Below are positions 1 to 19,537 of a DNA stretch of 64,000 bases, one piece after another. The stretch spans positions 2,560,001 to 2,624,000 of the forward strand of contig OZ240215.1 of NCBI GenBank assembly GCA_965197585.1. Direction: 5' to 3'. The position numbers were made by a program, and so were the translations under genes. Position 1 is the first letter of the stretch. Each line of letters starts with the position of its first letter. Below the pieces are notes generated by a model. The model was not told where the DNA came from. It searched no databases and saw only the letters and a list, made by a program, of their open reading frames with translations. The DNA is from Dehalococcoidia bacterium. Its GTDB lineage: Bacteria; Chloroflexota; Dehalococcoidia; Plut-88900.

Positions 1-314
1 GTCCCTCCCGTCGGGCCCATCACCCCTGTCGCCGAGACCGCCAGGTCCGACCCGATTAGCCGCCGAGCCCCTTTGGCCATCTCCCGCGCAGTCACCTCCG
101 ACACCGACCCCTCACGAATCATCACTTCTTTGGGAATGCCCAGTACGTTCTCTTTGATATCGTTGGCATACGCCAAAACGCCCCCAACAAAGAACCTCGA
201 ACTCCCCGGCACGCTGGTCAGCCTGGCCGCTATCAACCCCGAGGTACATGCCTCCGCCACGGACACCGTAAGTCCCCGCTCCTTCAGAATTCCCGCAACT
301 TCCTCTTCGATCAA
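1..314 (-). CDS. pncC: CinA C-terminal domain / nicotinamide mononucleotide deamidase PncC family protein (3' end outside window)
   Basis: Not in the ORF track. Manual translation from TTG at 314 (RBS GGGGGAG) gives ..LTVSVAEACTSGLIAARLTSVPGSSRFFVGGVLAYANDIKENVLG..GSVSEVTAREMAKGA..LAVSATGVMGP, matching the CinA/PncC motifs AESCTGG, PGSS, Y.N..K and S.TG.AGP. Confidence 0.85.
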   Translation of the reverse strand, partial: MIEEEVAGILKERGLTVSVAEACTSGLIAARLTSVPGSSRFFVGGVLAYANDIKENVLGIPKEVMIREGSVSEVTAREMAKGARRLIGSDLAVSATGVMGPTGG

Positions 315-418
315 ATCTCCCCCTTCAATGCCTGTTTCCTATTACCCCCAATTATAGCCCCCAAACCTCCCCCTTCCCCTTTCCGGCACCCCGTCCCGGA
401 GCCGTAATCGACCCCCAC

Positions 419-1030
419 CTAAGACCCCACCCCCACGCTGATATCTGTAGGCGTACCGCTATTCGTCGCATTCTGGTCCTGCGGACACGCCGACACACAC
501 ACCCAGCAGTCCATCTCTACCCTGAGCAGCACGTAGTCCCCCGCCTTAGTCTCCGGCGCCGCGATGTCCATCCTGCCGTCTATAAACACGCGGAAGTTGG
601 TGAACAGGTTAACGGGCTGCGGTATCTCCACTCCTGGCACCCCGATGGCCTCCATACTCTTCTGAAGGTTCTCCTCACAGCTGGCATGCCACCCCTCCAC
701 CCCCAACTCCCGGTACCTGCTGGGATTGCACGACGCGTATAGCAAGTCGTGAATTCCGGGGCTATGGTCCTCGACAAGCGTGAGGATAGGTCGGCGCTCC
801 TGGGTATAGAACGCATCACCTTCCTTCGGAAACAGCCTGGAAATGGAAGGCCTCGTATGCTCGGCGCTCAGGTACTCCTTTACGTTCTCCACGTTGAAGG
901 CAAACAGGTCCACGGCCTGCCCGCCATGCAGATCTATCACCTTAACCAGCTCCCCCTTACTTACCCGAAACGCCTTCCCTTCCCGAGCCGGTACATGGTA
1001 GTCCAACCGCTTCTGCGTTAGCTCCGTCAT
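419..1030 (-). CDS. Urea carboxylase-associated family protein (DUF1989)
   Basis: Motifs G.QAVDL, HDLLYASC, HASCEENL, P.NLF.N and SACPQD. Start MTELT has a GGAGG RBS. Confidence 0.85.
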   Translation of the reverse strand: MTELTQKRLDYHVPAREGKAFRVSKGELVKVIDLHGGQAVDLFAFNVENVKEYLSAEHTRPSISRLFPKEGDAFYTQERRPILTLVEDHSPGIHDLLYASCNPSRYRELGVEGWHASCEENLQKSMEAIGVPGVEIPQPVNLFTNFRVFIDGRMDIAAPETKAGDYVLLRVEMDCWVCVSACPQDQNATNSGTPTDISVGVGS

Positions 1031-1046
1031 ATGCAAACCTCCGTTT

Positions 1047-1142
1047 TTGACACAATTGTCCAACGCGCTTTATATTTCCCTTACCACCCCAGCGGTAGCA
1101 CCTCTGGGCCGACGTCCCCCCATGTGGGGGGCGTTTCTTTTT
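1047..1142 (+). ncRNA. Putative small RNA cassette, copy 1 (TTGACA-18nt-TATATT promoter, two hairpins, U-tract terminator)
   Basis: TTGACA 1047-1052, TATATT 1071-1076, hairpin cccag..ctggg, then GC hairpin gacgtcccccc..ggggggcgtt plus tcttttt. A homologous copy lies 850 nt downstream. Confidence 0.6.
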
Positions 1143-1225
1143 ACCCTTCCAAGACCTCACACTGATACCGGACCCGAATGCTTGTTGCTCAGTGCGGCAG
1201 GCGGTTACTGGTTTCTCCAAACTCT

Positions 1226-1849
1226 TTAGGCCCACTCCATCGGCCTCTCTAACACATATCCGTCGGCCTTGATGACCTTGCTAGGTAGCTGGTTGCCCCT
1301 TAGCACATTTCGGCCTATTGGCAAGTGTGCGGTTGCAGCCTTTCGGAGATTAGCCGAATGTCGGCCTGGCGGGAAAGCAACGACGACGCGTTTCTCGGGA
1401 TAGCGTGCCCGAACTTTACGCACCAGACCAGACATATCACCATCTGCGGATACGATAAGAGCCGTGTCAAACCTATTTGTTTGAGCATCGTCGAGCAGTT
1501 CGACAGCAATATTGACATCAGTCATTTTCTCTTCATAGGTTTGCCGATTCACTCCACAACTCGTGCAGTACTGGTCTTTGACCATGTAATACCCATAGTG
1601 GATTTGTAGGTCCGGAAGAGTCGCCAAGGCCTCCCAATAGGTAGTCTGTCGCTTCGGTTTACTCGGGTTGCCCGGCTCGGCAAAAACTCTTGCGGTGAAG
1701 TATCGTACTATCACTAGATGTTGTCCGGGCTTCATGAGGTTCTCGGACATTCGCCTGAGATCAAGCCAGTAATACCGCTTCCATCTCTTGGCTCTGAGAC
1801 CATAGTACAGGTTGAATCCATCTACATAGACAGCTACCCTTTCTGCCAA
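1226..1849 (-). CDS. NYN domain (LabA/DUF88, PIN-like) putative ribonuclease
   Basis: Motifs VYVDGFNLY, EKMTDVNIA and IVSADGDM carry the NYN acidic catalytic residues. TTG start at 1849 preferred; the ORF track extends to 1912. Confidence 0.9.
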   Translation of the reverse strand: MAERVAVYVDGFNLYYGLRAKRWKRYYWLDLRRMSENLMKPGQHLVIVRYFTARVFAEPGNPSKPKRQTTYWEALATLPDLQIHYGYYMVKDQYCTSCGVNRQTYEEKMTDVNIAVELLDDAQTNRFDTALIVSADGDMSGLVRKVRARYPEKRVVVAFPPGRHSANLRKAATAHLPIGRNVLRGNQLPSKVIKADGYVLERPMEWA

Positions 1850-1896
1850 AATTCTACCTTTAACATGATGTAAAGTTGCTTGTTCCACCCGTGCTC

Positions 1897-1992
1897 TTGA
1901 CACAATTATCACATGTGCAGTACATTTGCCTTACCACCCCAGCACTAGCACTGCTGGGCCGACGTCCCCAAATATGGGGACGTCTCTTTTTT
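1897..1992 (+). ncRNA. Putative small RNA cassette, copy 2, divergent from the NYN gene
   Basis: TTGACA 1897-1902, TACATT 1921-1926, hairpin cccagca..tgctggg, then perfect 10-bp hairpin gacgtcccca-aata-tggggacgtc plus tctttttt. Confidence 0.65.
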
Positions 1993-2146
1993 GCCCCCAA
2001 GCTCTCCCATCGGCATCTACTCTATCACTACGGTCTAGTCTATCCGAATCCCCGTTCTCACCCCTCACCCCCTCACCCATCCCGATAACCTCACCAACAC
2101 TTTTCAGACATCCTTTCCTACCTACCTAGCATCCCACTCTTAACTG

Positions 2147-2174
2147 TGTCATCCCGAGGCCCCGCGAGGGATCT
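2147..2174. repeat. REP-like dispersed palindromic repeat (family A)
   Basis: tgtcatcccgaggccccgcgagggatct, nearly identical to 25847-25874. Confidence 0.6.
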
Positions 2175-2718
2175 AGGACTTGCCCAACCACCCCCCGTAC
2201 GACCACTCCCTCGTGGTTAACCTCCCCACTCCCCACGCATCAAAGAAACACCAAATGTGACACCATCCCCTTGACTCCATCAGACCATACGTACTAACTT
2301 ACTCTCGATTCCCGTCTGCACAGCCGACTCCCCACCGCCGTCATCATTACCTCTTCTTTTCGAACGGTTTTCCCTCCGACCCAACAACCCCATACATCTA
2401 ATCCTGAAGGACCTTGCCCAATTCATAAGCTCCAGCCGCCATTTCGCCCCCCTCTCCCCTGGGAATTTCTCCATTTACGACAAATGAATCAAAGTCTCTC
2501 CGACAAGCAGACAATCAGAATTCGTGCCTGCTGCCCGCAAACAATCAAACACAAAGCTGATTCCTTTGATTGCCCCCGCAAGCTTTGATAGTAGTATGTC
2601 AACTTGCCCCTCACCCCCCATCCGCGTAAACTACCTCCGGATCGCTTATATAACATTACTTGATACGTGCAATAACAGATTGCATGAGTCCACGGCTCGG
2701 CCTGGACCCCTCAGGAGA

Positions 2719-2952
2719 ATGGACACAGGAGAAGACATCGCCATAGCCGACCATTGGGACGCCGGTCACATGGGCTGCGGTGAGGTAATCATCATGCTCA
2801 GGATGCGGTTTCAACCCCTCGCTCCTGGCCAGGTCTTCAAACTCACCACCCAGGACCTGGGCGCCCACGAAGACATCCCCGCCTGGTGCCGGCTCACGAG
2901 TCGGCGCCTCCTCAAAGCCGACCACCCCCACTACTGGATCGAGCAGAAATAG
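2719..2952 (+). CDS. TusA/SirA-like sulfur carrier protein
   Basis: 77 aa with WDAGHMGCGE..L.PG.V......D.GA.EDIPAWC, a TusA fold with CG in place of CP. Confidence 0.8.
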   Translation: MDTGEDIAIADHWDAGHMGCGEVIIMLRMRFQPLAPGQVFKLTTQDLGAHEDIPAWCRLTSRRLLKADHPHYWIEQK

Positions 2953-2970
2953 ACCCTGGAAGGAGTCAAC

Positions 2971-3333
2971 ATGTCCGGAAAGTTCTGCGTCAGCCTCACC
3001 CATGCCAAGGACAACACCGACAAAGCTACCGTGGCCTTCGTCATAGCCAACGCTGCCCTCGGTTCGGAGAAGGAGACCATGGTCTTCCTCAGCACCGAGG
3101 GAGTTCGTGTTGCCGAGAAGGGTTATGCCGACGACATCAACGAGGAAGGGTTCATGCCTCTCAAGGATCTGATGGACAGCTTCGCCGCATTCGGTGGTGA
3201 TATCTACGTCTGTGCACCGTGTTTCAAGAAGCGTGGCCTCGACGAGAACAACCTCGTTGACGGGGCCACGATAGTCGGTGGCGCAAAGCTCGTAGAGTTC
3301 CTCTCCGACAACAGCCCTGCCGTCTCCTACTGA
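2971..3333 (+). CDS. DsrE/DsrF-like family protein
   Basis: Motifs FLSTEGV and IYVCAPCFKKRG...L..G; strong GGAG RBS. Confidence 0.85.
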   Translation: MSGKFCVSLTHAKDNTDKATVAFVIANAALGSEKETMVFLSTEGVRVAEKGYADDINEEGFMPLKDLMDSFAAFGGDIYVCAPCFKKRGLDENNLVDGATIVGGAKLVEFLSDNSPAVSY

Positions 3334-3354
3334 CCTCCCGCACCCGAGCCACTA

Positions 3355-4875
3355 ATGGACCCCATCGAACGTCACGTATACCAGCCCGACGCCAGCTTCG
3401 ACGGCGGTGACCTCGATTGCGGCGGCGGCCTCCTTCTGCTCATCCGCCGTCACATCGACCCTATGGAGCGCGGCGGCCTCCTCGAAATCCTCTCCACCGA
3501 CTCCACAGTCGAAGTCGAGCTTCCCGCCTGGTGCCGCATGACCAGCAACGAGATGGTCTCCTGGACCAAGGGGAACGGGCAACGCAGCTTCCTGGTCTGC
3601 AAGGGTCCTTTGGAAGAGCACCCAGCCACGGTCACCCTCCCACCTCCCGCCTCCATAGGCGAACAGCTGCGCGTGAAGATCACAATCCCCGACTCCCTCC
3701 CCCCGCCCTCCCCCGCCCCCAGTATCGCACCGCTGTCCGTCATGGGCATCGGGAGCTGGCCCCGGCCCCGCTGGATGCTCCAGGCAGTCCACGACAGGCT
3801 CGAAGGCCGCCTCAATGACGACGACTTCCAGGCCACCGCTGACGACGCCGCCCGACTCTCCATCGACGCCCAACTTCGCGCCGGTGTCGACGTGGTCACC
3901 GACGGCGAGCAGCGCCGCGACAACTATGCCAGCTTCGTAGGCGGCCTCCTCGACAACTGCCAGCTCATCCCTCTCACCGACCTCACCGCCATGGTCGACG
4001 ACCCCGAGAAGTTCGAGAAGGACCTGCGCGCCCTTGACGTGCCCGCCGGCGAGGTGCGACACCCTGTCGTCTACGGCAAGCTCGGCAGAAGCAGTCCCCT
4101 CGCCGTCCACGAGCTTGAATTCGCCGCCAAATGCACCGACAGGCCCATCAAGGTCGCCCTCCCCGGCCCCTACCTACTCATCCGTACCATGTGGCTTGAC
4201 TGTCTTACCGACCTCCCCTACGAGACCCGTGAAGACCTAGCCCGAGACGTCGTACGAGTCCTCCGCGAAGAGCTCCACTTCCTCCTCGCCTCCGGCGCAG
4301 CCCTAGTCCAGTTCGACGAACCCGTCCTCACCGAGGTCGTATTCGGCGCCCCAAGCGGCAACCGCACTTTCATGTGCGGGGCCCTCAGCGAAAAGCTGGC
4401 CCCTGCCGCAGAGCTTGATTTCGCCGCAGGCCTCCTTAACGACGTCGTCACCGGCCTCCCACCCGACCGCCTCGGCCTCCATATCTGCCGCGGCAACTGG
4501 ACCCGAGACGAGTCCGCCGCACTCTCCGGCGACTACCGCCCCCTCCTCGACCTCCTCAACAGGGTCAAGGTTGGGACCCTACTCCTGGAGCTCTCAACCC
4601 CCCGTGCCGGTGAAGCTGCAGTCTTGCGTTCTCTCCCCGAGGACAAGCGCATAGCCATCGGTGTCGTCAATCAGAAGCTCGACGCCGTAGAACGTCCCGA
4701 GGACATCCGCCGGAGCATAGACCTCGGCATCGACCTCTTCGGAAGGGAGCGCCTTATCCTCACCCCCGACTGCGGCTTCGCCACATTCGCCGACAACCCC
4801 GTCGCCTCCGCCACCACCGCCGAGGCCAAGCTCCGGGCCATAGCCCAGGCCCGGGAACTGGTTCCGGCGTCATGA
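3355..4875 (+). CDS. Fusion of an N-terminal TusA-like domain and a cobalamin-independent methionine synthase II (MetE C-terminal-like) Zn domain
   Basis: N-terminal FDGGDLDCGGG..ELPAWC, Pro-rich linker, then IGSWPRP, DGEQRR, QFDEP, HICRGN, LELS and PDCGF (Zn ligands H, C, E, C). Confidence 0.85.
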   Translation: MDPIERHVYQPDASFDGGDLDCGGGLLLLIRRHIDPMERGGLLEILSTDSTVEVELPAWCRMTSNEMVSWTKGNGQRSFLVCKGPLEEHPATVTLPPPASIGEQLRVKITIPDSLPPPSPAPSIAPLSVMGIGSWPRPRWMLQAVHDRLEGRLNDDDFQATADDAARLSIDAQLRAGVDVVTDGEQRRDNYASFVGGLLDNCQLIPLTDLTAMVDDPEKFEKDLRALDVPAGEVRHPVVYGKLGRSSPLAVHELEFAAKCTDRPIKVALPGPYLLIRTMWLDCLTDLPYETREDLARDVVRVLREELHFLLASGAALVQFDEPVLTEVVFGAPSGNRTFMCGALSEKLAPAAELDFAAGLLNDVVTGLPPDRLGLHICRGNWTRDESAALSGDYRPLLDLLNRVKVGTLLLELSTPRAGEAAVLRSLPEDKRIAIGVVNQKLDAVERPEDIRRSIDLGIDLFGRERLILTPDCGFATFADNPVASATTAEAKLRAIAQARELVPAS

Positions 4876-5582
4876 CCGGCCCGGCTGGCCCTCCACCCAC
4901 CGACGACGAGGCCATCCAGGTCCAGGGCTATCAGCGGTTCCGTGCCCCGGAAGGCCACACCGGCCAGGGAATCCTGATAAACACCTCCCGCGGCAGCATA
5001 TTCAGCCTTTTTCACCCCACCGAGACCATGGACGCCGCCGTACTCTGGGTCTGGGGCGCCCGAGGAGGCGTCACCGGCCCCGCCGACAGCATCTACGTCC
5101 GCCTCGCCGAGCGCCTCGCCAGTCAAGGCATAGCCTCCCTCAGGCTCGACTACCGTTTACCCAATGACCTCTACGAATGCGTCCTGGACACCCTCGCCGG
5201 GACAACCCTGCTGCTGGGTGTTGGCTTTAAGCGATTGGCCCTGGTTGGCCATTCCTTCGGAGGGGCCGTGGTAATAGCCGCCGCACCTTACAATGACAAG
5301 ATAGTAGCCGTCGTAGGTTTATCCAGCCAAAGCGCAGGTGCGCAGCGTGTTTCGGAAGTCGCCCCCAGGCCTCTTCTCCTCGTCCACGGCGCAGACGACG
5401 CCATAATCCCAGTCCGTGCCTCCCAGTTCATCTACGACCTGGCCGATCAACCCAAGGAACTGCGCTACTTTCAGGGCGCGGGCCACGGCCTGAACGAGTG
5501 CCGTGAAGAGCTGGAGGAACTGCTCCACGGCTGGCTCCGGGAGAAGCTGGCCCCGCCAACCGTCGACTCCGCACCTGCCTGA
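4872..5582 (+). CDS. Alpha/beta hydrolase
   Basis: GHSFG nucleophile elbow, HGADD and GAGH complete a Ser-Asp-His triad. ATGA overlap with the upstream gene. Confidence 0.85.
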   Translation: MTGPAGPPPTDDEAIQVQGYQRFRAPEGHTGQGILINTSRGSIFSLFHPTETMDAAVLWVWGARGGVTGPADSIYVRLAERLASQGIASLRLDYRLPNDLYECVLDTLAGTTLLLGVGFKRLALVGHSFGGAVVIAAAPYNDKIVAVVGLSSQSAGAQRVSEVAPRPLLLVHGADDAIIPVRASQFIYDLADQPKELRYFQGAGHGLNECREELEELLHGWLREKLAPPTVDSAPA

Positions 5583-5681
5583 CTAACAACCTGGCATTAC
5601 AAGAAATGCGATGCATCTCTTGATCCAGTAAGTATCTCTTCGGGTATAGGCAACGGGATCCCCGCACCCTATGGGTGGTGT

Positions 5682-5711
5682 CCGTTCGCCCTGAGAGTAG
5701 TCGAAGGGTCT
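5682..5711. repeat. REP-like dispersed repeat (family B)
   Basis: ccgttcgccctgagagtagtcgaagggtct; a reverse-complement copy is at 19419-19449. Confidence 0.55.
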
Positions 5712-5740
5712 AAAGAACGGACGGGGCCGGATCCCCCTCC

Positions 5741-6988
5741 CTACCCCTCCTGATTGCACACGTCCAGTGCCGTTGCCGCCATCGCCTTGGCGCAGGTAAC
5801 CATGTCGCTGATGCGGACGTAGTGGTCTGGTTCGTCTTCCCGTGCATCCCAATCGCCCCCTGGCCCGTACAGCACGCACGGGATGCCCGCCTTCCACAAG
5901 TGGGTAGTGTCATTCCCCGAGTAAGAGTTGGGAGTCTTGCTCCCGACGTAAGCCAACTCGCCCCCCGTGACCGCCCTGAACCCCCGAGCCACCGCTTTCA
6001 CAATCTCCTCGTCCGTGGGCATGTTCATCGGCTCCATCACCGTGCGAAGCACCCGATAATCCGCTGGTGGCGGCATCTCGATCTCATAGTCGAACTCGGG
6101 GTCCGAGGCCTTGACCGCATCCAGGGCCCGACGCACCTCCTCTAGGACTCCCGACGATGTTTGACCCGGGACCATGCGCCCGTCCACCAGCGCCGTGCAG
6201 AAGTCAGGCACGAAGTTCGGGCCGTTTATCACATGGTTCCTCCCCTGTCCCCCGATCACCGCTCCAACGTGTAGCCGAGGTAAGGATGGCAGGGCCGCGA
6301 ACGGTGTATGCGACAGCTCCAGCCCGTTTATCGCCTCAATGGCCTTGGACATCTTCTGAATTGCGTTGATGCCGCTCTCTTTCTGGCTTATGTGCCGAGA
6401 CTCGCCCAGCACGTGCACCGCCATCTCCAGCCATCCTGCGTGCACAGTGAGAACGGTGTCCGCGTCGTTCGGTTCCGCCACTATCGCCATGTCGGGGCGG
6501 TAGCCGTGCTCCAGGGCATACTCCGTCCCCACCCCACCCTGCAGCTCCCCGACAACACACGCCACCTGCAGGTCTCCCTTGAGCGACGCCTTCGCCCGGC
6601 GAATCGCCTCGGCCGCCGCCACTATCGACGCAACACCGCCCTTCATGTTGTATATCCCCGCCCCGTACAGCCGGTCACCTTCCACCGAGGACTTCCACGG
6701 GTCACGCTTCCAACCCATTGAAAGCGGGTCCTGGTCTATGTGCCCGTTCAACATCAGGGTTTTCCCGCCCCCCGTGCCCCGCAGCGTCGCGATTACCTGG
6801 TACCGGCCCGGGTCCACCTCTTGAAGGTCGACCTCATATCCCCATCGCCGGAAGTTCGACGCCAGGAACAGCGCTATCTGAGATTCCTCGGTCTTGAAGC
6901 TCGGTATGTCGATTAGCTTCTTCGCAAGCCCGACAACCCAATCTTCCTTCACCCGATTCGTTACTCTGTCTAAAGTTGTTGCAGCCAT
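5741..6988 (-). CDS. M20/ArgE-DapE family metallo-amidohydrolase (paralogue 3)
   Basis: Motifs LNGHID, YGAG..NMKGG, GELQGG and AEP. Confidence 0.9.
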   Translation of the reverse strand: MAATTLDRVTNRVKEDWVVGLAKKLIDIPSFKTEESQIALFLASNFRRWGYEVDLQEVDPGRYQVIATLRGTGGGKTLMLNGHIDQDPLSMGWKRDPWKSSVEGDRLYGAGIYNMKGGVASIVAAAEAIRRAKASLKGDLQVACVVGELQGGVGTEYALEHGYRPDMAIVAEPNDADTVLTVHAGWLEMAVHVLGESRHISQKESGINAIQKMSKAIEAINGLELSHTPFAALPSLPRLHVGAVIGGQGRNHVINGPNFVPDFCTALVDGRMVPGQTSSGVLEEVRRALDAVKASDPEFDYEIEMPPPADYRVLRTVMEPMNMPTDEEIVKAVARGFRAVTGGELAYVGSKTPNSYSGNDTTHLWKAGIPCVLYGPGGDWDAREDEPDHYVRISDMVTCAKAMAATALDVCNQEG

Positions 6989-7003
6989 TCTCGATCTCCC
7001 CGG

Positions 7004-8248
7004 CTAGGCCGGCAGGTTACAGACTTCAAGCGCCGTTAGGGCGTGGGTCTTTGCGCACTCGACCATTTCGCTCACGTTGACAAACGTGTCGGCCTCTCCA
7101 CCGAGCGACCTGTCGCCCCCCGGCCCGTTCAGGACACACGGGATGCCCGCCTTCCACAAGTGGCACGTATCGTTGCCCGCATAAGAGCGAGGCAGTATCG
7201 CCCCGACGTTCTCGGGTGGCGCCCCCATGTGCCCTTCAATCGCCCGAGCCACCGCCCCGACTATGTACTCATCCTTCGGGATGTCCACCGGGTCCATGGT
7301 CACGGCTACCCCCTTATATCTCGCAGGCGGCGGTATGACCAGCTCCCATTTCAGTTCCGGGTCCTCGGCGCTCAGGCCGTCCATGACCTTCCTCACGTCC
7401 TCCTCCACGCTCTCGGCGGTCTGGCCGGGGACTATGCGCACGTCCCAGATGGAGGTGCAGAAGTCGCTCACGTAGTTGGGACCCTTCAGGTCATGGTCTC
7501 GGCCCCGACCCCCGATAATTGCCCCACAGTTTATCCTCGGCAGCCCCGGCAGTTCGGGGTGCGGCGTATGCCTCAGTTCGACTTTGTCCACCGCATCGAT
7601 CACCTTCATCATCTTCCCAATCGCGTCGACCGCCTCTTCCCTCACCGTGATGTGCTTGGAGTACCCCAGGACGTTGATCGCCATCCCGATAACTCCGGCA
7701 TGGATAGTCATGATAGTCTTCGACCCGAAGGGCTCGGCTACAATGGCCATGTCCGCCGTCACCCCGCTTTCGAGAGCGTGGACCGTCCCCACCCCTCCCT
7801 GCAGCTCTCCCACCACGCACGCCACTACTATGTCTCCCTTAAGCTCCACCTTAGACTTACGAATAGCCTCCGTCGCCGATATCATCGAAGCGACTCCACC
7901 CTTCATGTTGAAGGCTCCACCCCCGTACAGCCGGTCCCCTTCCCAGCTGGGCGTCCACGGGTTCCGTTTCCAGCCCATCGCCAGCGGGTCGATGTCTATG
8001 TGCCCGTTCAACATCAGGCTCTTCCCCCCACCCGACCCCTTAAGCGTAGCTATGGTCTGATACCGCCCCGGCTCCACTTCCTGTAGATCGACCTCATATC
8101 CCCTCCGCCGGAAGTACGTGGCGAGATACTTGGCTACCTTCTGCTCTTCCGTCTTGAAGCTCGGTATGCGGAGGATCCTGCTGCACAGGTCCACCACCTC
8201 CCGATCCTTGATCTTTCCCAGAACCCTATCCTTCACTGCTGCATCCAT
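7004..8248 (-). CDS. M20/ArgE-DapE family metallo-amidohydrolase (paralogue 2)
   Basis: Same motifs; closely similar to the neighbouring paralogues. Confidence 0.9.
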   Translation of the reverse strand: MDAAVKDRVLGKIKDREVVDLCSRILRIPSFKTEEQKVAKYLATYFRRRGYEVDLQEVEPGRYQTIATLKGSGGGKSLMLNGHIDIDPLAMGWKRNPWTPSWEGDRLYGGGAFNMKGGVASMISATEAIRKSKVELKGDIVVACVVGELQGGVGTVHALESGVTADMAIVAEPFGSKTIMTIHAGVIGMAINVLGYSKHITVREEAVDAIGKMMKVIDAVDKVELRHTPHPELPGLPRINCGAIIGGRGRDHDLKGPNYVSDFCTSIWDVRIVPGQTAESVEEDVRKVMDGLSAEDPELKWELVIPPPARYKGVAVTMDPVDIPKDEYIVGAVARAIEGHMGAPPENVGAILPRSYAGNDTCHLWKAGIPCVLNGPGGDRSLGGEADTFVNVSEMVECAKTHALTALEVCNLPA

Positions 8249-8291: not shown

Positions 8292-8978
8292 TTATTCTTC
8301 TACCTTTGTGACCGGTTTTGACAACTTTTCCTTCAACGGATTTGTTGGCCTGACGGGATACAAAGAGTCTAGGCTTTCCAATTCCGAGAGCACCTTCACC
8401 AAAGCACGACGCGTGGTAGGCCTGCAACCCTGTATCGCCTTAATCAGTTCCCGAACGGTTTTGTCGCTAGTCTCCTTCTTATTTTGTGCGAAGTCGTTTT
8501 GCGCATAGTTGATGGAAAACTTATCCATGCTGGTCAGCGACCCGAATTTGGGACGCCACCAAGTGGGACACAAATTCAGAAGGTCGACTTCTTCCCTAAC
8601 CGTAATCACCACCACGTCAACGCCTCGCTTGCGTAGAGTATCCAATTTCCGGCATTTCTCTTCGCTGGGCGGACTGCTGACAACCACTTCGATGATTCTG
8701 AGCGGCTTGACTTCGTCGTCGCCGTAGAGGATGAGATCAGGCACGATGCCTCCCACACTGTCCCACTCCGGGTCTGGAACCTTGACACTCCCAACTCCGG
8801 CCCGCAGGTCGTGCGACAGCTCCCCGTCCGGTTCAAGTCTCGCCCGAATCTCCTCTCCCCTATCTAAGTCAGGGCGCGTCAACTCGTCGTAGAGCAGAGC
8901 TACAGCCCGTTCGTGCAGAGCACTGACAGGCCAAGCCTGCGTTCCGACATTCCTGGCCATGTCCCCGTTCTCGCTCAT
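8292..8978 (-). CDS. Hypothetical protein with a possible PD-(D/E)XK nuclease-like fold
   Basis: IVPDLILY....P..IIEVVVS resembles the PD..E.x motif. The gene sits between M20 paralogues. Confidence 0.5.
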   Translation of the reverse strand: MSENGDMARNVGTQAWPVSALHERAVALLYDELTRPDLDRGEEIRARLEPDGELSHDLRAGVGSVKVPDPEWDSVGGIVPDLILYGDDEVKPLRIIEVVVSSPPSEEKCRKLDTLRKRGVDVVVITVREEVDLLNLCPTWWRPKFGSLTSMDKFSINYAQNDFAQNKKETSDKTVRELIKAIQGCRPTTRRALVKVLSELESLDSLYPVRPTNPLKEKLSKPVTKVEE

Positions 8979-8995
8979 TGGGATACCCCCCTCCC

Positions 8996-10246
8996 CTACT
9001 TCTCCTGATTGCACCAGTCCATCGCCGCCAGGGCATACGTCTTCGCCAGCTGCACCATGCTCGGCACTATGACGTAGGAGTCGGGCTCACCCTTCTGGTC
9101 CCGGCCGTTCTCGGCGCCCATCAGGCACACTGGAATACCCGCCTCCCAAATGTGGCAGCTGTCGTTGCCCGCATAGGATTGGGTCAGTATCGCCCCTATC
9201 TTGTCCGGCGCCCGACCCGAAACCTTGCGGTAGGCCTTCTCCAGGTTCTGCACTATCACGTTGTCTTTGGGCACGTCCATCGGGTTCATGAACACCGTCA
9301 TCACCTTGTACTCCGGCGGCACCGGCGTCACTATCTCGTACTCGAAGGTCGGGTCCTCTTCCTTGATCTTGCTCAGTGCCCGGTCAAGGTCTGCCTTGAC
9401 CGTCACGTGCGACTGCCCAGGCACGATCCTCGCATCGACTATCACCGTGCAGTAGTCACAGGTGAAGTTCGGCCCTTTCAGGTCGTGGTTCCTCCCCCTC
9501 CCCCCGATTATCGTCCCAGCGATAATCCGTGGCAGATCGGGCAGGTCGGGCCTGTGTTCATAGGTGAATTCTACGTTCTTTATTGCCGGTATGGCCTTTG
9601 TCATCATCTCCAGGGCGTCGATGGCCAAATGAGAGCGGCTCACGTGCTGCGACTGCCCGACGGTACTGATAGCCAACTCCACAACCCCTGCGTGAGTCGT
9701 CATTATGTTGTCCCCGTCGCCCGTGGGCTCCGCGACATAGGCTCCGTCAGTTCTCAATCCTTGGTTTAAGGCGTAGACCGTCCCAACCCCTCCCTGCAGC
9801 TCCCCCACAACACACGCCACGACAAGGTCGCCCTTCATCGGGGCCTTGGCCTTCCGAATAGCCTCGGCAGCAGTGATGATCGCCGTTACCCCGCCCTTCA
9901 TGTTGTTGATCCCCGCACCGTACAGCCGGTCCCCTTCCCAGCTGGGAGTGAACGGCTCCCGGACCCAGCCCATCGCCAGCGGGTCGATGTCTATGTGCCC
10001 GTTAAGCATCAGGCTCTTGCCCCCACCCGACCCCTTGAGCGTCGCTATCGTCTGATACCGACCCGGCTCCACTTCCTGCAAATCTACCTCATACCCTCTG
10101 CGACGGAAGAACCCGGCCAGGAACCTGGCAACTTTCTGCTCTTCCGTCTTGAAGCTGGGCATGGAAATCAGGTCGCTGGCCAGCTTGACTGTCTGCTCGG
10201 TCTTGATTTGACGCAGTACGCGTTCCTCGACCGCTTGGTCAACCAT
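8996..10246 (-). CDS. M20/ArgE-DapE family metallo-amidohydrolase (paralogue 1)
   Basis: Motifs LNGHID, GINNMKGG, GELQGG and AEP. Confidence 0.9.
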   Translation of the reverse strand: MVDQAVEERVLRQIKTEQTVKLASDLISMPSFKTEEQKVARFLAGFFRRRGYEVDLQEVEPGRYQTIATLKGSGGGKSLMLNGHIDIDPLAMGWVREPFTPSWEGDRLYGAGINNMKGGVTAIITAAEAIRKAKAPMKGDLVVACVVGELQGGVGTVYALNQGLRTDGAYVAEPTGDGDNIMTTHAGVVELAISTVGQSQHVSRSHLAIDALEMMTKAIPAIKNVEFTYEHRPDLPDLPRIIAGTIIGGRGRNHDLKGPNFTCDYCTVIVDARIVPGQSHVTVKADLDRALSKIKEEDPTFEYEIVTPVPPEYKVMTVFMNPMDVPKDNVIVQNLEKAYRKVSGRAPDKIGAILTQSYAGNDSCHIWEAGIPVCLMGAENGRDQKGEPDSYVIVPSMVQLAKTYALAAMDWCNQEK

Positions 10247-10348: not shown

Positions 10349-11470
10349 CTACATACCCTCAAAGCGCAGAGTGCCTTCCAAGCGGTGCTTCCCATCCGCG
10401 AATTGGAAAGCCAAGGGTATTTCTTCACCTTCGGCAGGGGGTATGAATCCATTGTTTCTAAGGGTCCTGAGTGCTAGCAATATCTGTCGCTCGGAGAACT
10501 GTCGTTTCCTGTCACTCCAGCTGTGAGTTTGGGCAACAATGTCGGACTCGGTGGCATTCGGATATTCCTTGGTGACCCAGTGGACAGTTGCTAGCAACTC
10601 AAGGCCAAAAGGTGTTTCGAATCCTTCAATCAGCTCTGTGACTCTGTCCAGTCTTCGCTTCGATTCAGGATGGCTTACCAAATAATTATCCGAATCAGTA
10701 AGTGCACTTGGGGCTAATGTGAGTTGCTTGTGAGGTTCGTCACCCCCATCGTTATATCCGTAGATCATGTGTCCCTCAACCGTCCGTAGCAGATGTCGAA
10801 GATTCTGAGCGTATGGCCCATAGGTCTCTTTCACGAAAGCCAGCCTCAGCGGCTCACCCGCTTCCTGCATGAAATACATAAGCTTATGCACTTCTAGCAG
10901 CGTTACAAAAGGATCGAGCAAACCTTTGAGGTAGCGGTAAATCAAGCGTATCAAGACTGCTCTTGCTACAGTCATCTTGGATGCACTGACAGATTTAGGT
11001 AGTTGACTGATGGAAGCACTACCAGGTTTGAATACGATCGCATCTAAGCAATCGATTGCCTTTACAGTTGCTTCTATAAGGGGACGCACGTCCGCCCAAT
11101 TAAGCTTGCCCAAGTCGGTTCCTAGAGGGGGAATCGCTATAGAACGGATGTTGCGCGCCTTAATCTCTTCTGCTAGTGCGTCAAGGCCTGCTTCAATGTA
11201 TTCGAGGCGGCTTTTGCCACGCCAGTGAATCTTGGTTGGGAAGTTGATGACAAAGCGAGGGTTGGTGGAACATCCAGTTTCGAATACAAACATCCGACCC
11301 GGTTTTACCTCTTCCCGCTCGCAGGCGGCCTGATAGGCCTTGAAGTTGGCCGGATATTTCCTTTTGAACTGGAGGGCTATCCCGCGTCCCATCACACCAA
11401 CGCAGTTGACACTGTTAACTAACGCTTCGGCATCCTCCTCGAATATATCGCCCCTCTTATATTCGATCAT
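10349..11470 (-). CDS. darG: DarG antitoxin (macrodomain DNA ADP-ribosyl glycohydrolase)
   Basis: GDIF..DAEALVNSVNCVGVMGRGIALQFK, INFPTK.HW and SIAIPPLG in the macrodomain; C-terminal YGPYA and GLELLATVHW. Confidence 0.93.
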   Translation of the reverse strand: MIEYKRGDIFEEDAEALVNSVNCVGVMGRGIALQFKRKYPANFKAYQAACEREEVKPGRMFVFETGCSTNPRFVINFPTKIHWRGKSRLEYIEAGLDALAEEIKARNIRSIAIPPLGTDLGKLNWADVRPLIEATVKAIDCLDAIVFKPGSASISQLPKSVSASKMTVARAVLIRLIYRYLKGLLDPFVTLLEVHKLMYFMQEAGEPLRLAFVKETYGPYAQNLRHLLRTVEGHMIYGYNDGGDEPHKQLTLAPSALTDSDNYLVSHPESKRRLDRVTELIEGFETPFGLELLATVHWVTKEYPNATESDIVAQTHSWSDRKRQFSERQILLALRTLRNNGFIPPAEGEEIPLAFQFADGKHRLEGTLRFEGM

Positions 11471-11484
11471 GTGCCCGGCCCTCC

Positions 11485-12150
11485 TCACGAATAATACCAA
11501 TCCCTCTTAATCTCGACTAGCGGGTTTATTTTAGCAAACCGTAGCGCGGACAAAACACGATTCCTGATTTGAGGCGAGTATACGCCAATGCGCTTTATCA
11601 GTGTCCAGGGAAATGAAAGCTGTACCAATAACTCTGCTTGCTTAAGTTCCTTGCGGTTCGGAAACTGTGAAGTATTGGTCCAGGTTTTGGATTGTACAGC
11701 GTCCCAATCTATCTTCTCCAATTGGGTAACGTCGGAGAAGTCCTCGAAATGGTTTGACCCTGCATTAGATGTGGTAAAGGCCCATAGCCGCTTGCGCTTT
11801 TCAGCCCACTGGATCACACAATGTAGATCGGCCTCAAGGTGAATAATGGGCACTTGCCCATCGTGATATGTCAGTTCGGGAAGGCTGCTTTTGTGGAGCA
11901 CATAAAGCATGACGGAACGTGGACAGAAGTAGAAAGGGACGCAATCGCCAACGTGTAAATCGGAATGGCAACTCAAGGCCTTGCTTCGCCGTCGTTGTTT
12001 GATGTTTTCAATACCGATAGTAGTGCCGGTATTCTTCCGGCCTGCCATGACCGCATCACACCATAGACCACTATCCTTGATAATGGATGGCAGTCGATCC
12101 ACATGCACAATGTGGTAAATCTTGGGCCGTTCCGGCACGAGCGCAGTCAT
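11485..12150 (-). CDS. darT: DarT toxin (DUF4433 ssDNA ADP-ribosyltransferase)
   Basis: IYHIVHVDRL, VPFYFCPRSVMLY, FTTSNA and KQAE (catalytic Glu); directly upstream of darG. Confidence 0.92.
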   Translation of the reverse strand: MTALVPERPKIYHIVHVDRLPSIIKDSGLWCDAVMAGRKNTGTTIGIENIKQRRRSKALSCHSDLHVGDCVPFYFCPRSVMLYVLHKSSLPELTYHDGQVPIIHLEADLHCVIQWAEKRKRLWAFTTSNAGSNHFEDFSDVTQLEKIDWDAVQSKTWTNTSQFPNRKELKQAELLVQLSFPWTLIKRIGVYSPQIRNRVLSALRFAKINPLVEIKRDWYYS

Positions 12151-13669: not shown

Positions 13670-14800
13670 ATGGCAACTTCTCTTACCGGAAGCTACGTTT
13701 CCGCTGATGGACACGTCGTAGAGCCCAAGGACTTGTTTTCTTCCCGAATGGACCGGAAACTCGCTGAAAAGGCCCCACACATCGAGTCCCGGGACTCCGG
13801 TGACTTCTACGTCATGGAAGGCTTCGGCGAGTTCGCCATCGGACTCTCCGGCGAGGGCAGCGCAGCCACCGACAAAGCCGAGGGCAAGGAAATCCACATG
13901 GCCGGCCTCCGCTATGATGACACCCGACCCGGCGCCTGGGATCCCGCCGCACGGCTCAAAGATCAGGACCTTGACGGCATCCGCGCGGAGGTTATGTACC
14001 CTGGTGTCTTTGGCCTTTGGTGCTACAACGCCTCCGACGCCGACCTCCACGTCGAAATCGTCCGCGTTTATAACGACTGGATCGCCGAGTTCAGCGCCTC
14101 CTCTCCCGACCGGCTCTTCGGCGTCGGCATCCTGCCCATGAGAGGCTCGACCGAAAGCAAAATCGCCGAGGTGGAGAGGGTCGCCAAGCTTGGCCTCAGG
14201 TCGGTGATGCTTCCCCTGGAAGTAGAGGGCGGTTACGTCAACATGGAGGGCGGCGACCAACTCTGGGCTGCCCTTCAGGACGTCGGGCTGCCCCTCGGGT
14301 TTCACGTGGGCTCCAGTACCAAGTCGGTCAGCGCAGACAAGTACCGGAGCCTGGGAGTCGGCGTCGCCGTAATAGAGCAGAAGATCTGCGCCGTGGCCCG
14401 CGGCCTCACCGATCTCATCCTCTCCGGCGTTCCACAGTCGTTCCCCGGCCTCCGGTTCGTCATGGCCGAGGGCGGTATCGGCTGGATACCTTCAGTCCTG
14501 CGTCTCAACGACCACTGGTGGGAAGACCACCGGCACTGGATGGAGCCCAAGCTGGAAGAGGCGCCGAGCAGCTACTTCTTCCGCCAGTTCTGGGCCACTT
14601 TCGAAGACGACCGTGCTGGCCTCCTCACCCGGGAACTCCTCAACGTCGACAAGCTGATGTGGGGCTCCGACTACCCCCACCCCGAGGGCGTATTCCCCTT
14701 CTCCCGGCAGCAGATCGCCAAGGACTTCCACGACATCCCGGAGCACGAGACCGTAAAGATCGTTGGCGACAACGCGGCGGCGCTGTACGGCCTGAATTAG
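13670..14800 (+). CDS. Amidohydrolase_2 family metal-dependent hydrolase
   Basis: Motifs SADGHVVEP, YNDW.AEF, FHVG, E.G.GW and WGSDYPH. Confidence 0.88.
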   Translation: MATSLTGSYVSADGHVVEPKDLFSSRMDRKLAEKAPHIESRDSGDFYVMEGFGEFAIGLSGEGSAATDKAEGKEIHMAGLRYDDTRPGAWDPAARLKDQDLDGIRAEVMYPGVFGLWCYNASDADLHVEIVRVYNDWIAEFSASSPDRLFGVGILPMRGSTESKIAEVERVAKLGLRSVMLPLEVEGGYVNMEGGDQLWAALQDVGLPLGFHVGSSTKSVSADKYRSLGVGVAVIEQKICAVARGLTDLILSGVPQSFPGLRFVMAEGGIGWIPSVLRLNDHWWEDHRHWMEPKLEEAPSSYFFRQFWATFEDDRAGLLTRELLNVDKLMWGSDYPHPEGVFPFSRQQIAKDFHDIPEHETVKIVGDNAAALYGLN

Positions 14801-15630
14801 GGCCGATAGGCCTCCGGTATCGGGCCGGTGGGTGGATAGCCGCCCTGGTCGTCGTGGGTCTCATCCCCGTATATTGGCGGGTTGAAGATGCTCATCACCC
14901 ACAAATCGGTGAACCACGTTACCTGGTGCCGGTCCCTGGGGCCGACGACATACACGGTTCCCGGCGCCAGATCCCACTTTTCGCCGGTGGTCACGTCCTC
15001 GACGGAGCCCTCACCCTCGAGAACGTAGTTCGCCTCGACGTGGTTCTGGTACCACATGACGATGCCCTTGCCCTCAGGGGCGCGGGGGGTGGAGATGGTG
15101 AACCCACACCCATCGTCGTGGGTGAGGTATCGATAGGCATTCGCGCGGCTGTGGCCTATTTCGACCACGGGAACATCCTCGAGTCTTTTCACATACATCG
15201 TCCGGCCCGCGTCACCCTGCCAGGCGGGGGGAATATCGCCTGTCGGGGGGAAGGCGCCGTCCGCGTCGTGCCTCTCATTGCCCATCACTGCGGGGCTGAA
15301 AATACTGACCAGGTGGACATCAGTCTTGGCCGTGAGACGATGCCTATCCTTAGGCCCGACCACGTACATACCTCCGTCCTCGACATCCCAGCTATTACCG
15401 TTGGTCAGGTCGGTAACCTCCAGGATGCCCTTTATGATCAGGTTCCCCTCCACGTGGTTCTTGTAGTGAAGGTCGAATGAGAATCCTGCCGAGAACCGCC
15501 CGTCGGAAAGGGAGAAGCCGCAGCCGTCGGCTTTAGTTAAGAGGCGCCTGGCATGCAAGATCTTGTCGCCGTCCCGGCGCACCATCTCTTTGTCGGTCCC
15601 GGCCAGGTCCTCCAGCTTTCTTGCGAACAT
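14797..15630 (-). CDS. Tandem two-domain ectoine synthase (EctC)-like cupin, copy 6
   Basis: Two EctC-type repeats, each with [HW]Y.NHVE, Y.VGP.DRH and F.P...G.E.HD..G.YP. Confidence 0.85.
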   Translation of the reverse strand: MFARKLEDLAGTDKEMVRRDGDKILHARRLLTKADGCGFSLSDGRFSAGFSFDLHYKNHVEGNLIIKGILEVTDLTNGNSWDVEDGGMYVVGPKDRHRLTAKTDVHLVSIFSPAVMGNERHDADGAFPPTGDIPPAWQGDAGRTMYVKRLEDVPVVEIGHSRANAYRYLTHDDGCGFTISTPRAPEGKGIVMWYQNHVEANYVLEGEGSVEDVTTGEKWDLAPGTVYVVGPRDRHQVTWFTDLWVMSIFNPPIYGDETHDDQGGYPPTGPIPEAYRP

Positions 15631-15649
15631 GATTGCACCACCAAATGAT

Positions 15650-15705
15650 GTGGCCGCTCATATGTCGACCCCCAGCGGAGGATCTTGGGCAGTATGAGCG
15701 GCCAC
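15650..15705 (-). repeat. Intergenic inverted repeat in the leader of EctC-like copy 6
   Basis: gtggccgctcata...tatgagcggccac; the whole spacer is duplicated at 16569-16673. Confidence 0.6.
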
Positions 15706-15734
15706 TTGCTCCGCGGAATTTTCTGCCTAATTAG

Positions 15735-16568
15735 CTAAGGCCGCCAAGCCTCCGGAATCGGCCCCCTGGGCGGGTATCCACCCTGGTCGTCGTGGGTCTC
15801 ATCTCCAACCAGCGGAGGATTGAACACGCTCATCAGGTAGAAATCGGTGTTCGCCTGTATCTGGTGCCGGTCCTTGGGACCGACCACATACACCGTCCCC
15901 GGGGCCAGGTCCCACTCCTCCCCCGTCGTCTGGTCCTTCACTGAGCCCTCGCCCTCCAGGATGTAGTTAGCCTCGACGTGGTTCTGGTACCAGAGGACAG
16001 TGCTCTTGCCCGCAGGGGCGCGGGGCGTAGATATTGTGAAGCCGCACCCATCTTCCTGGGTGAGGTATCGATAGGCGTTCGCGCGGCCGTGGCCTATTAC
16101 GATTACCGGGATGTCCTCCAGTCTTTTCACGTACATCGTTCGGCCGGCGTCACCCTGCCATGCGGAGGGAATGTCGCCCGTCGGGGGGAAGGCGCCGTCC
16201 GCGTCGTGCCTCTCATTACCCATCACGGCGGGGCTGAAAATACTGACCAGGTGGACATCAGTCTTGGCCGTGAGACGGTGCCGGTCCTTAGGCCCGACCA
16301 CGTACAGACCTCCGTCCTCCAAATCCCAGCTATTACCGTTGCTCAGGTCTGTCACCTCGATGACGCCCTTGATGATCAGGTTCCCTTCAACGTGGTTCTT
16401 GTAGTGCAGGTCGATGGAGAATCCCGCCGAGAAGCGCACGTCGGATAGGGAGAAACCGCACCCGTCTGCCTTCGTCAGCAGCCGCCCCGACTGCAAAATC
16501 TTATCCCCTTCCCTTTTCACCATCTCTTTGTCGGTCCCGGCCAGGTCCTCCAGCCTTCTTGCGAACAT
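15735..16568 (-). CDS. Tandem two-domain EctC-like cupin, copy 5
   Basis: 277 aa with the same double EctC motifs. Confidence 0.85.
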   Translation of the reverse strand: MFARRLEDLAGTDKEMVKREGDKILQSGRLLTKADGCGFSLSDVRFSAGFSIDLHYKNHVEGNLIIKGVIEVTDLSNGNSWDLEDGGLYVVGPKDRHRLTAKTDVHLVSIFSPAVMGNERHDADGAFPPTGDIPSAWQGDAGRTMYVKRLEDIPVIVIGHGRANAYRYLTQEDGCGFTISTPRAPAGKSTVLWYQNHVEANYILEGEGSVKDQTTGEEWDLAPGTVYVVGPKDRHQIQANTDFYLMSVFNPPLVGDETHDDQGGYPPRGPIPEAWRP

Positions 16569-16587
16569 GATTGCACCTCCAAATGAT

Positions 16588-16644
16588 GTGGCCGCTCATA
16601 TGTCAACCCCCCAGCGGAGGATCTTGGGCAGTATGAGCGACCAC
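16588..16644 (-). repeat. Intergenic inverted repeat in the leader of EctC-like copy 5
   Basis: gtggccgctcata...tatgagcgaccac; the single change gives a G-U pair on the minus-strand RNA. Confidence 0.6.
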
Positions 16645-16673
16645 TTGGTCCGCGGAATATTCGTCCTATCGCA

Positions 16674-17507: not shown

Positions 17508-17528
17508 GGTTACACCTCCGGGTTTGCC

Positions 17529-18362: not shown

Positions 18363-18453
18363 AACTTCACCTCCAGATCCTTTCCATATATACGGGTCTC
18401 GGGGGACAGTCTAACTTAAACCGAGAAAGCGGACACTCACCATCGCCGGCTCC

Positions 18454-19287: not shown

Positions 19288-19418
19288 GTCGGGTGTCCTC
19301 CGGGTTCGGGAGTATCTGTGTAAATGACCTTGTTCTTAGCCGGGACCACCCTAACCCATCAGGAAGCCTTTGTGTAACTCTGGCCTGGCGTCGGGACACC
19401 CCGCCCATTCCGCTCTTG

Positions 19419-19449
19419 AGACCCTTCGACTCCGCTCAGGGCGAGCGGA
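19419..19449. repeat. REP-like dispersed repeat (family B)
   Basis: agacccttcgactccgctcagggcgagcgg, the reverse complement of the element at 5682. Confidence 0.55.
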
Positions 19450-19537
19450 ATGCCCCACCCCCAGGGGATGGATTACGGCTCGGGGGCCAGAGTGACAGTT
19501 ATGCAAAAGTCTCATCAAGGGAAAGGGGATAAGAAGC

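Follow-up and report, generated by a model that had tools for sequence, protein, structure and literature searches.

We analysed a 64,000-nucleotide (nt) stretch of DNA from a Dehalococcoidia bacterium (hereafter the window, whose positions serve as coordinates unless another sequence is named) and in it a gene cassette at 2719-5582, which encodes a free TusA-like carrier, a DsrE-like protein and a fusion of a second TusA-like domain to a core MetE-type barrel, followed by an alpha/beta-hydrolase. The first three genes form a conserved unit that moves as a block among genomic contexts and phyla, since the DsrE and TusA linkage is kept while the hydrolase and the other neighbours are lineage-specific. 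MetE-fold enzymes are known as methyl and alkyl transferases, and TusA and DsrE as persulfide carriers in tRNA thiolation, cofactor synthesis and sulfur oxidation; the module, which is widespread in soil and marine bacteria, joins a methionine-synthase-fold enzyme to such carriers. As a tentative explanation, and the one that we prefer, a relay of cysteines that runs by way of C22 and C341 of the fusion protein may shuttle sulfane sulfur (or possibly selenium) between the carriers and a homocysteine-like substrate held on zinc.

All four open reading frames (ORFs) of the cassette, taken from the ORF list with its translations, lie on the plus strand. The gene for the free TusA-like protein (2719-2952, 77 amino acids (aa)) is followed after 18 nt by that for the DsrE-like protein (2971-3333, 120 aa), which in turn precedes the fusion gene (3355-4875, 506 aa) by 21 nt. 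The fusion protein consists of an N-terminal TusA-like domain (residues 1-85, 3355-3609), a Pro-rich linker delimited by reading of the sequence (residues 86-125, 3610-3729), and a core MetE-type triosephosphate isomerase (TIM) barrel (residues 126-506, 3730-4875). The initial annotation had described a tight four-gene operon. The reading frames, their common strand and their close packing agree with this, but the hydrolase falls outside the conserved unit, as it was present in 8 of 80 loci from one genus-level group.

Conservation was assessed in a survey with one genome per species, in which 215 stretches encoded a relative of the fusion protein and the best 80 of these were examined. In a protein search 7422 of the 8000 proteins scored passed an E-value of 0.001, most of which may be other MetE-like proteins; the best 120 clusters (clustering at 90%) were 74-93% identical to the window protein and nearly all about 506 aa long, the longest having 702 aa. 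No protein name was attached to these 120 clusters or to four relatives looked up in public records, and neither the fusion protein nor its 93% homologue was present in the ESM Atlas. A literature search, with subscription journals outside its coverage, found no paper on the combination of TusA, DsrE and MetE-like genes. The 80 loci span at least seven phyla (Dehalococcoidia/Chloroflexota, Latescibacterota, Terriglobia/Acidobacteria, Verrucomicrobia, Planctomycetota, Binatia, and one metagenome-assembled genome (MAG) of Burkholderiales), and across phyla the module is 63-93% identical; it is under strong constraint. The DsrE gene was found directly 5' of the fusion gene in 78 of the 80 loci, the two exceptions being a locus cut by its contig end (L076) and one that begins about 1 kb inside its contig, with that ~1 kb left out (L080). 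A free TusA gene lay 5' of DsrE in 75 loci. Among the remaining five, L067 and L076 are at a contig end, L080 carries the same ~1 kb caveat, and two Binatia loci are truly without the gene. The recurrence of this order in 75-78 of 80 loci from other genomes places the three-gene arrangement far beyond chance, and the gene linkage, on which the initial annotation had let its idea stand or fall, is conserved.

Both TusA-like units contain D-x-G-x(3)-C-G and PAWCR, motifs that the initial annotation had singled out as atypical replacements for CPxP. The motifs are indeed there and CPxP is absent (the free protein reads CGEV at this place and the fused domain CGGG), but PAWC is not what replaces it. 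C20 of the free protein (2776-2778) aligns with the Cys of 'RCPEP' in E. coli TusA (3LVJ), so that the Cys remains in place without the prolines, and C57 (in PAWC, 2887-2889) aligns with the Cys of 'IPGFC', which is also present in E. coli TusA. By this alignment PAWC is a second motif rather than a CPxP substitute, and the predicted active Cys is retained in the TusA units. C20 and C57 were kept in 76 of 76 aligned free proteins, while the corresponding positions of the fused domain, C22 (3418-3420) and C60 (3532-3534), were kept in 80 and 79 of 81 sequences, respectively. The TusA fold with its conserved active cysteine (PF01206) was recognized in both units, with scores around the Pfam cut-off of 28.6 bits: 26.9 bits (E 4.3e-6), slightly below it, for the free protein, and 25.2 bits (E 1.5e-5, residues 27-83) for the fused domain, which reached 28.7 bits in the genome-wide TusA search. 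Against the NCBIfam TusA equivalog NF001423, with its cut-off of 78 bits, the free protein scored 29.8 and the fused domain 21.9 bits. The two units are 28% identical to each other over 40 residues, PAWCR included.

The DsrE fold (PF02635) was matched with 58.9 bits against a cut-off of 22.7. The closest solved structure is 3MC3, a DsrE/DsrF-like protein, in which C81 falls on the Cys of 'YVC'; C84 completes a CxxC, and the CAPC reported in the initial annotation is thus present as C81-A-P-C84 (3211-3222). C6, C81 and C84 were conserved in 78, 79 and 78 of 79 sequences, respectively. We take C81 to be the catalytic position of DsrE/TusD. The TusD/DsrE equivalog TIGR03012 gave 18.5 bits against a cut-off of 89.25, and the host has a single DsrE-family gene. 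The 3.43-Mb host genome has no matches to the TusA and DsrE families other than the cassette proteins, which suggests that these carriers are dedicated to the fusion enzyme.

The barrel matched Pfam Meth_synt_2 with 89.2 bits from residue 132 of the fusion protein onward, and the same Pfam search gave no Meth_synt_1 match, in line with the earlier claim that the folate-binding N-terminal half is missing. All models for complete or curated methionine synthases scored below their cut-offs: TIGR01371 (52.7 bits against 929.95) and PRK05222 (65.2 against 541) for MetE, and the equivalogs NF003317 (145.4 against 406, the best overall), NF006589 (104.4 against 392), NF002119 (80.1 against 258), NF004875 (75.2 against 576) and NF005085 (82.7 against 313). 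An AlphaFold2 model of the fusion protein, built from 45 sequences, had a mean predicted local distance difference test score (pLDDT) of 82.9 and a predicted TM-score of 0.75. In this model pLDDT was below 50 at linker residues 91-103 and 93-95 at residues 111-130, and the second half of the Pro-rich linker is conserved in the fusion-family alignment. Foldseek returned MesD (3RPD) first (E 1.6e-23, target TM 0.82), followed by the C-terminal barrels of MetE; 3RPD is also the best solved relative by sequence, at 22-23% identity.

In E. coli MetE zinc is bound by H641, C643, E665 and C726, and homocysteine is contacted by S433, E484 and D599, which correspond to Ser22, Glu73 and Asp188 of 3RPD (PMC7857596). 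In MesD 3RPD the latter three residues contact selenomethionine. The fusion protein has zinc ligands at H376-x-C378, E412 and C473, as aligned to 3RPD and T. maritima MetE, and its S134, E185 and D321 align with Ser22, Glu73 and Asp188 of 3RPD when an inferred tag offset of 3 residues is allowed for. The four ligands and the S/E/D triad were invariant in 81 sequences and in the 45-sequence alignment, which upholds the single MetE-like barrel with intact zinc site seen in the initial annotation. Because triad and ligands are invariant, the enzyme most likely retains the ability to bind an amino acid of the homocysteine type (resembling homocysteine or methionine). In addition, three extra cysteines are conserved among the fusion sequences: C202 in 79, C283 in 81 and C341 (4375-4377) in 81 of 81. 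C341 lies in a 33-residue stretch (326-358) where 3RPD has 12 residues, a roughly 21-residue insert placed directly after the strand bearing D321 and modelled with a beta-hairpin at 337-346.

A full scan of 1.84 billion representatives gave 3713 matches, of which the nearest unfused barrels (P0134 and P0143) were 41-43% identical and matched no curated family. We surveyed 80 loci of the P0134 family, from Dehalococcoidia, Anaerolineae, Thermoflexus, Acidobacteria, Latescibacterota and Thaumarchaeota. Hidden Markov models built from the cassette detected TusA or DsrE in 0 of these 80 sister loci. An OsmC-like ORF was present in 76 of them, in 55 cases 3' of the barrel gene and on the same strand, and this OsmC-like partner has a single conserved Cys (70 of 76 sequences); a tandem rhodanese was found in 24 loci and a CMD/AhpD-like protein in 12. 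Zinc ligands and amino-acid residues are preserved in the sister barrels (~42-48% identity to the fusion barrel), all 80 of which have the insert with an 'FMC' Cys equivalent to C341; C202 and C283 are missing from them and are specific to the fusion family. The host itself also carries a sister module (G000:C1:1494909-1497513, plus strand; barrel of 387 aa, OsmC-like protein of 173 aa and tandem rhodanese of 259 aa), with another Meth_synt_2 paralog at 1493640-1494842 divergent from it. Each of two related barrels is thus accompanied by reactive-cysteine or sulfane-sulfur proteins, and this, together with the extra Cys common to both barrels, is the main reason to favour a cysteine relay ending at C341. 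Three other proteins considered as distant fused relatives were set aside: the locus search for P0124 gave one unrelated-looking locus, P0127 lacks the ligands and P0132 looks frameshifted.

A more distant Meth_synt_2 paralog, 28-30% identical to the fusion barrel, is of interest in its own right. In three genomes (G075, G181 and G290) it has an in-frame TGA at the zinc-ligand Cys of HxC ('FHL*RGN'), namely at 3787-3789 of L192 (gene at 3022-4200, plus strand), at 3664-3666 of L193 and at 3344-3346 of L194 (minus strand). The frame stays open for ~130 codons beyond the TGA with the Glu and Cys ligands conserved, and a stem-loop begins ~8-11 nt past it, which makes the protein a candidate selenoprotein with an H-x-U metal site. 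The terms 'methionine synthase', 'MetE' and 'homocysteine' do not occur in the main text of a 2026 review of prokaryotic selenoproteins.

In the relay that we prefer, the zinc of the barrel would bind an amino acid of the homocysteine type, in the manner of MetE and MesD, and the order of transfer would run from the free TusA and DsrE to C22 of the fused TusA domain and on to C341. Sulfane sulfur would be delivered to, or removed from, the zinc-bound chalcogen, with selenium possibly in place of sulfur, and sulfur bound to the carriers would be what the module uses to make or process the thiol group of a homocysteine-like amino acid. A more specific version, which we regard as rather unlikely, has the barrel act as a pyridoxal phosphate-independent, carrier-persulfide-dependent homocysteine synthase or its selenium counterpart. 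Here a persulfide on C341, loaded via TusA and DsrE, would attack an activated homoserine held by S134, E185 and D321; the product thiolate would end on zinc, and resolution of the mixed disulfide would fall to the CxxC and the second cysteines. In the sister module the barrel, OsmC-like protein and rhodanese would carry out the same chemistry starting from thiosulfate. If true, this would constitute a new sulfide-free route of sulfur into amino acids in aerobic bacteria and some archaea.

Several points weigh against the relay. The cassette itself contains no gene for a cysteine desulfurase, a rhodanese or another source of sulfur, and both Binatia loci mentioned above do without the free TusA. 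As a distant paralog has the S/E/D triad too, the triad is no more than moderate evidence for homocysteine. In a class sample of 301 Dehalococcoidia genomes (all tallies include G243, flagged unpublished, on which no specific claim depends) PF01053 enzymes (MetB/C/Y/Z) occurred in 83, and there was no association with the module, as 9 of 27 fusion carriers, all in the window's genus, had such an enzyme versus 74 of 274 others. The CxxC of DsrE and the OsmC-like and AhpD-like proteins fit reductant roles in thiol-disulfide exchange equally well. The closeness of C22, C341 and zinc is read from sequence position, and it is from what was observed (the order of the genes and how well it is kept, the fold, the conserved residues, and the other methionine synthases of the host) that we infer the direction and order of the relay, its substrate and its reaction.

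Whether the module could simply supply methionine can be judged from its hosts. The host genome, a single 3.43-Mb contig that is 92% complete, has a split MetE consisting of two adjacent half-genes (the catalytic half scores 387.6 bits to NF003317) and at least four more Meth_synt_2 paralogs; it lacks a full MetH. In the class sample the fusion was present in 27 of the 301 genomes (nine genomes of the window's genus and sixteen of genus g9, together with G214 and G237), and the sister without the fusion in 16. The five complete g9 genomes that were checked (~2 Mb) have a full MetH (1167-1183 bits); beyond that, the only Meth_synt_2 genes in them are the fusion gene and, in three cases, a distant paralog. 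That small genomes with a methionine synthase of their own retain the module speaks against a simple housekeeping role as MetE. These data argue that the cassette is not the cell's main methionine synthase, and a B12-independent backup is still compatible with them; in the reading that we prefer it is no methyl-folate methionine synthase either. The initial annotation had likewise set methionine supply from methyl-folate aside, which fits with the module not being its host's only methionine synthase.

The alternative that survives best, although we consider it unlikely, is that the fusion protein is a fifth kind of core folate-independent methionine synthase with an unknown methyl donor. The cysteine proteins would then have a MesX-like accessory role, either in making or delivering the methyl donor or in maintaining the zinc/cysteine site in its reduced state in air. 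This would account for the intact zinc and homocysteine residues and for MesD being the closest characterised relative by both sequence and fold. MesD, too, requires a dedicated partner of unknown chemistry (PMC7857596). A B12-independent backup would be sensible in g9, where the only complete canonical synthase found is the B12-dependent MetH, and in the two Binatia loci a 432-aa gene that is divergent from DsrE and the fusion gene (L074:2985-4283 and L075:3055-4344, both minus strand) appears from its N-terminal residues to be metY-like (O-acetylhomoserine sulfhydrylase). Against this stand the implausibility of cysteine thiols or persulfides as methyl donors, the B12-independent split MetE that the host already has, and the curated methionine-synthase models, every one of which scored far below its cut-off. 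The surroundings of the cassette also speak against this reading. Pfam scans of the neighbours in the 80 loci, which covered 18 representatives of recurrent clusters and 39 downstream ORFs, found no gene for a corrinoid protein or other methyl carrier linked to the core cassette; in 6 loci the cassette is flanked by a methylmalonyl-CoA mutase gene, 3' of which lies a gene with a B12-binding domain. RNA searches gave chance-level matches only in positions 1-8000 of the window (E 1 or better, riboswitches and other RNAs) and only two tRNAs in 12 related loci, so that no S-adenosylmethionine (SAM) or cobalamin riboswitch was seen upstream.

A role in selenium handling strikes us as improbable. 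TusA and the CxxC-containing DsrE would in that case act as a split YedF, and the barrel would work on selenohomocysteine or selenomethionine, or selenium would be passed toward SelD. The host uses selenocysteine (Sec), since it has a SelD gene with an in-frame TGA (G000:C1:3357253-3358176, minus strand, 385 bits), hence a Sec-containing SelD, and a tRNA-Sec (3198932-3199030); the same TGA is found in nearly all Dehalococcoidia SelD genes among the matches listed (150 of 233). YedF is a fusion of TusA-like and DsrE-like (CGxC) parts that is statistically tied to SelD (PMC5322559), and DsrE-like UxxC proteins are known selenoproteins (PMC13188914). SelD was present in 43 of 43 carriers of fusion or sister in the class sample (16 genera) versus 185 of 258 other genomes, or 16/16 versus 123/176 when counted by genus, and in 23 of 25 carriers from other phyla. 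However, SelD is common anyway, being found in 228 of 301 Dehalococcoidia and 113 of 151 Planctomycetota (a background of 73-75%), and within Planctomycetota the values were 6 of 7 carriers and 107 of 144 others. Most of the listed genomes without SelD are small or incomplete, which makes genome size a confounder of the comparison, and the naive binomial value of 7e-5 for the co-occurrence treats related genomes as independent and is not trustworthy. Moreover, there was no selenium gene within ~5 kb in any of the 80 loci, no TGA in place of a conserved Cys in 160 loci, and no match of the YedF model TIGR03527 to either TusA or DsrE at E 0.01 or better.

Still more doubtful is the idea put forward in the initial annotation, that the enzyme alkylates or dealkylates a carrier-bound sulfur. 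Zinc would activate the persulfide or thiol of TusA for (de)alkylation by a small molecule, by analogy with epoxyalkane:coenzyme M (CoM) transferase. In favour of this, the barrel has a covalently attached carrier domain whose Cys is near-invariant, and the barrel face that in MetE is used by the N-terminal domain and folate would be free, as inferred from established MetE structures. The invariant triad, however, points to an amino acid still occupying the thiol site, the sister family operates without any TusA, and no gene for an alkyl donor or a product pathway is linked. What endures of the earlier idea is the notion of a relay and the non-folate nature of the enzyme; the substrate would be a bound amino acid rather than carrier sulfur alone, and nothing in our analysis shows alkyl transfer.

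Finally, it is very unlikely that the carriers serve as dithiol reductants for a barrel that uses C341 to reduce an oxidised sulfur amino acid (a homocysteine or methionine disulfide or sulfoxide) and is recycled by the DsrE CxxC and TusA, or in the sister family by the OsmC- and AhpD-like proteins: the CxxC itself, the OsmC-like and AhpD/CMD-like sister partners (families known as thiol peroxidases and reductases) and the occurrence of the module in MAGs titled as soil, freshwater and marine (sponge), whose aerobic lifestyle is an assumption, would suit it, but rhodanese (24 of 80 sister loci) and TusA typically carry sulfane sulfur, the OsmC-like partner keeps just one conserved Cys (70 of 76), and we know of no MetE-fold reductase.

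The fourth gene of the cassette (4872-5582, plus strand, 236 aa) overlaps the end of the fusion gene in an ATGA and is translationally coupled to it as a lineage-specific accessory. It encodes an alpha/beta-hydrolase that matches several Pfam hydrolase families (Hydrolase_4, Abhydrolase_1/6 and DLH), with GHSFG at residues 126-130 as its nucleophile elbow. The unit ends at 5582, because the next downstream gene (5741-6988) is convergent. The eight loci with a hydrolase 3' of the fusion gene (L001-L007 and L036; relatives 83-98% identical) also have M20 peptidase and DUF1989 neighbours in common, which identifies them as close relatives of the window; the module is self-contained and laterally mobile, and the hydrolase is an add-on of the window's genus. 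In all-against-all clustering of neighbour ORFs no further family reached more than 9 of the 80 loci, and the recurrent neighbours were lineage-specific: sulfatases, a permease, methylmalonyl-CoA mutase, a cupin and a zur-znuACB-like set (6 loci). Immediately downstream of the fusion there was no gene in 23 loci and a unique one in another 23; in L037 one OsmC-like gene lies downstream. A phosphite-type ABC importer was not seen in any of the 160 loci. The zur-znu set belongs to one Dehalococcoidia lineage (L033, L035, L042, L048, L049 and L050), where the cassette is divergent from genes for a Fur-family (Zur-like) regulator, ZnuA and a ZnuC-like ATPase, with an unannotated 328-aa ORF without Pfam match at the place expected for the permease (e.g. 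L050:278-4674, minus strand). This hints at zinc-responsive control of the zinc enzyme, seen in that one lineage only.

A scan for promoters came back with 0 sites, and 3 sites resembled terminators where 2.3 were expected. Parts of the cassette stretch are covered by contigs that come from relatives ~91-93% identical in three metatranscriptomic libraries, one of the contigs spanning 2708-3690 and another 4786-5551; DNA carry-over is possible, so these contigs show neither transcription nor a single transcript.

Some further genes of the window may be recorded here. Between the DUF1989 gene and the cassette lies a gene for an NYN-domain protein (1226-1912, minus strand, Pfam 63.4 bits), which among the eight close relatives is present in L036 alone and therefore looks like a recent insertion. 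Downstream of the cassette, three paralogous M20 peptidase / ArgE-DapE deacylase genes of ~415 aa are arranged near-tandem on the minus strand (5741-6988, 7004-8248 and 8996-10246), interrupted by an unrelated 240-aa ORF at 8292-9014; the Pfam/NCBIfam scan covered the first of the three. Two overlapping minus-strand genes follow (10349-11500 and 11485-12150), which we take, from their translations, to be macro-domain-like and DUF4433/DarT-like and possibly a DarT-DarG toxin-antitoxin pair. In the ORF list there are, moreover, six consecutive minus-strand ORFs of exactly 277 aa each in 14797-20371 (14797-15630, 15735-16568, 16674-17507, 17529-18362, 18454-19287 and 19538-20371), which look like a tandem gene array.

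If the module were worked out, a new reaction would be defined at a zinc site that binds homocysteine. This could also close gaps in how many uncultured bacteria of soil and sea are understood to make their sulfur or selenium amino acids (218 of the 301 Dehalococcoidia genomes are without PF01053), and it may illuminate the unsolved partner chemistry of MesD and MesX.

Among known systems MesD/MesX (Acinetobacter ACIAD3523/3524; Shewanella 3RPD), which occurs in aerobic bacteria, is nearest. Both enzymes are single MetE-type barrels without a folate domain, and they share the zinc ligands, the Ser/Glu/Asp contacts and a dedicated partner encoded next door (PMC7857596). They differ in that the partner here is TusA plus DsrE instead of MesX, in the low identity of 22-23%, and in the N-terminal TusA domain, the C341 insert, the two further conserved cysteines and the other methionine synthases of the host. 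MesX (DUF1852, PF08908) had no match in the host, in a search that also matched none of 14 control genomes, and none among the 18 cluster representatives and 39 downstream ORFs of the 80 loci; in the literature from 2021 on we found no new MesX/DUF1852 mechanism. MetE (TIGR01371) has the catalytic barrel, the HxC...E...C zinc site and the homocysteine residues in common with the fusion protein, whereas its N-terminal barrel that binds methyl-folate is absent here. MesA, MesB and MesC take their methyl group from a corrinoid protein (MtrA or the corrinoid iron-sulfur protein CoFeSP) in anaerobes with methanogenesis or the Wood-Ljungdahl pathway. The epoxyalkane:CoM transferase, a MetE-fold zinc enzyme for a non-amino-acid thiol, would be set apart, going by its description, by the invariant amino-acid triad of the fusion protein. 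Persulfide relays of TusA and DsrE-family proteins operate in tRNA thiolation (TusA-TusBCD) and in sulfur oxidation (TusA-DsrEFH and DsrE3). The cassette has the same pairing, and each carrier keeps a Cys aligned with the known active Cys, but CPxP is lost, DsrE has a CxxC, Dsr, Hdr and Tus partner genes are missing and the acceptor is a MetE-fold enzyme. YedF (TIGR03527; PMC5322559), finally, has the same order of TusA then DsrE and a CxxC in its DsrE part, whereas in the cassette these are two separate genes, with a TusA that lacks CPxP, and they are linked to a MetE-like enzyme rather than to selD.

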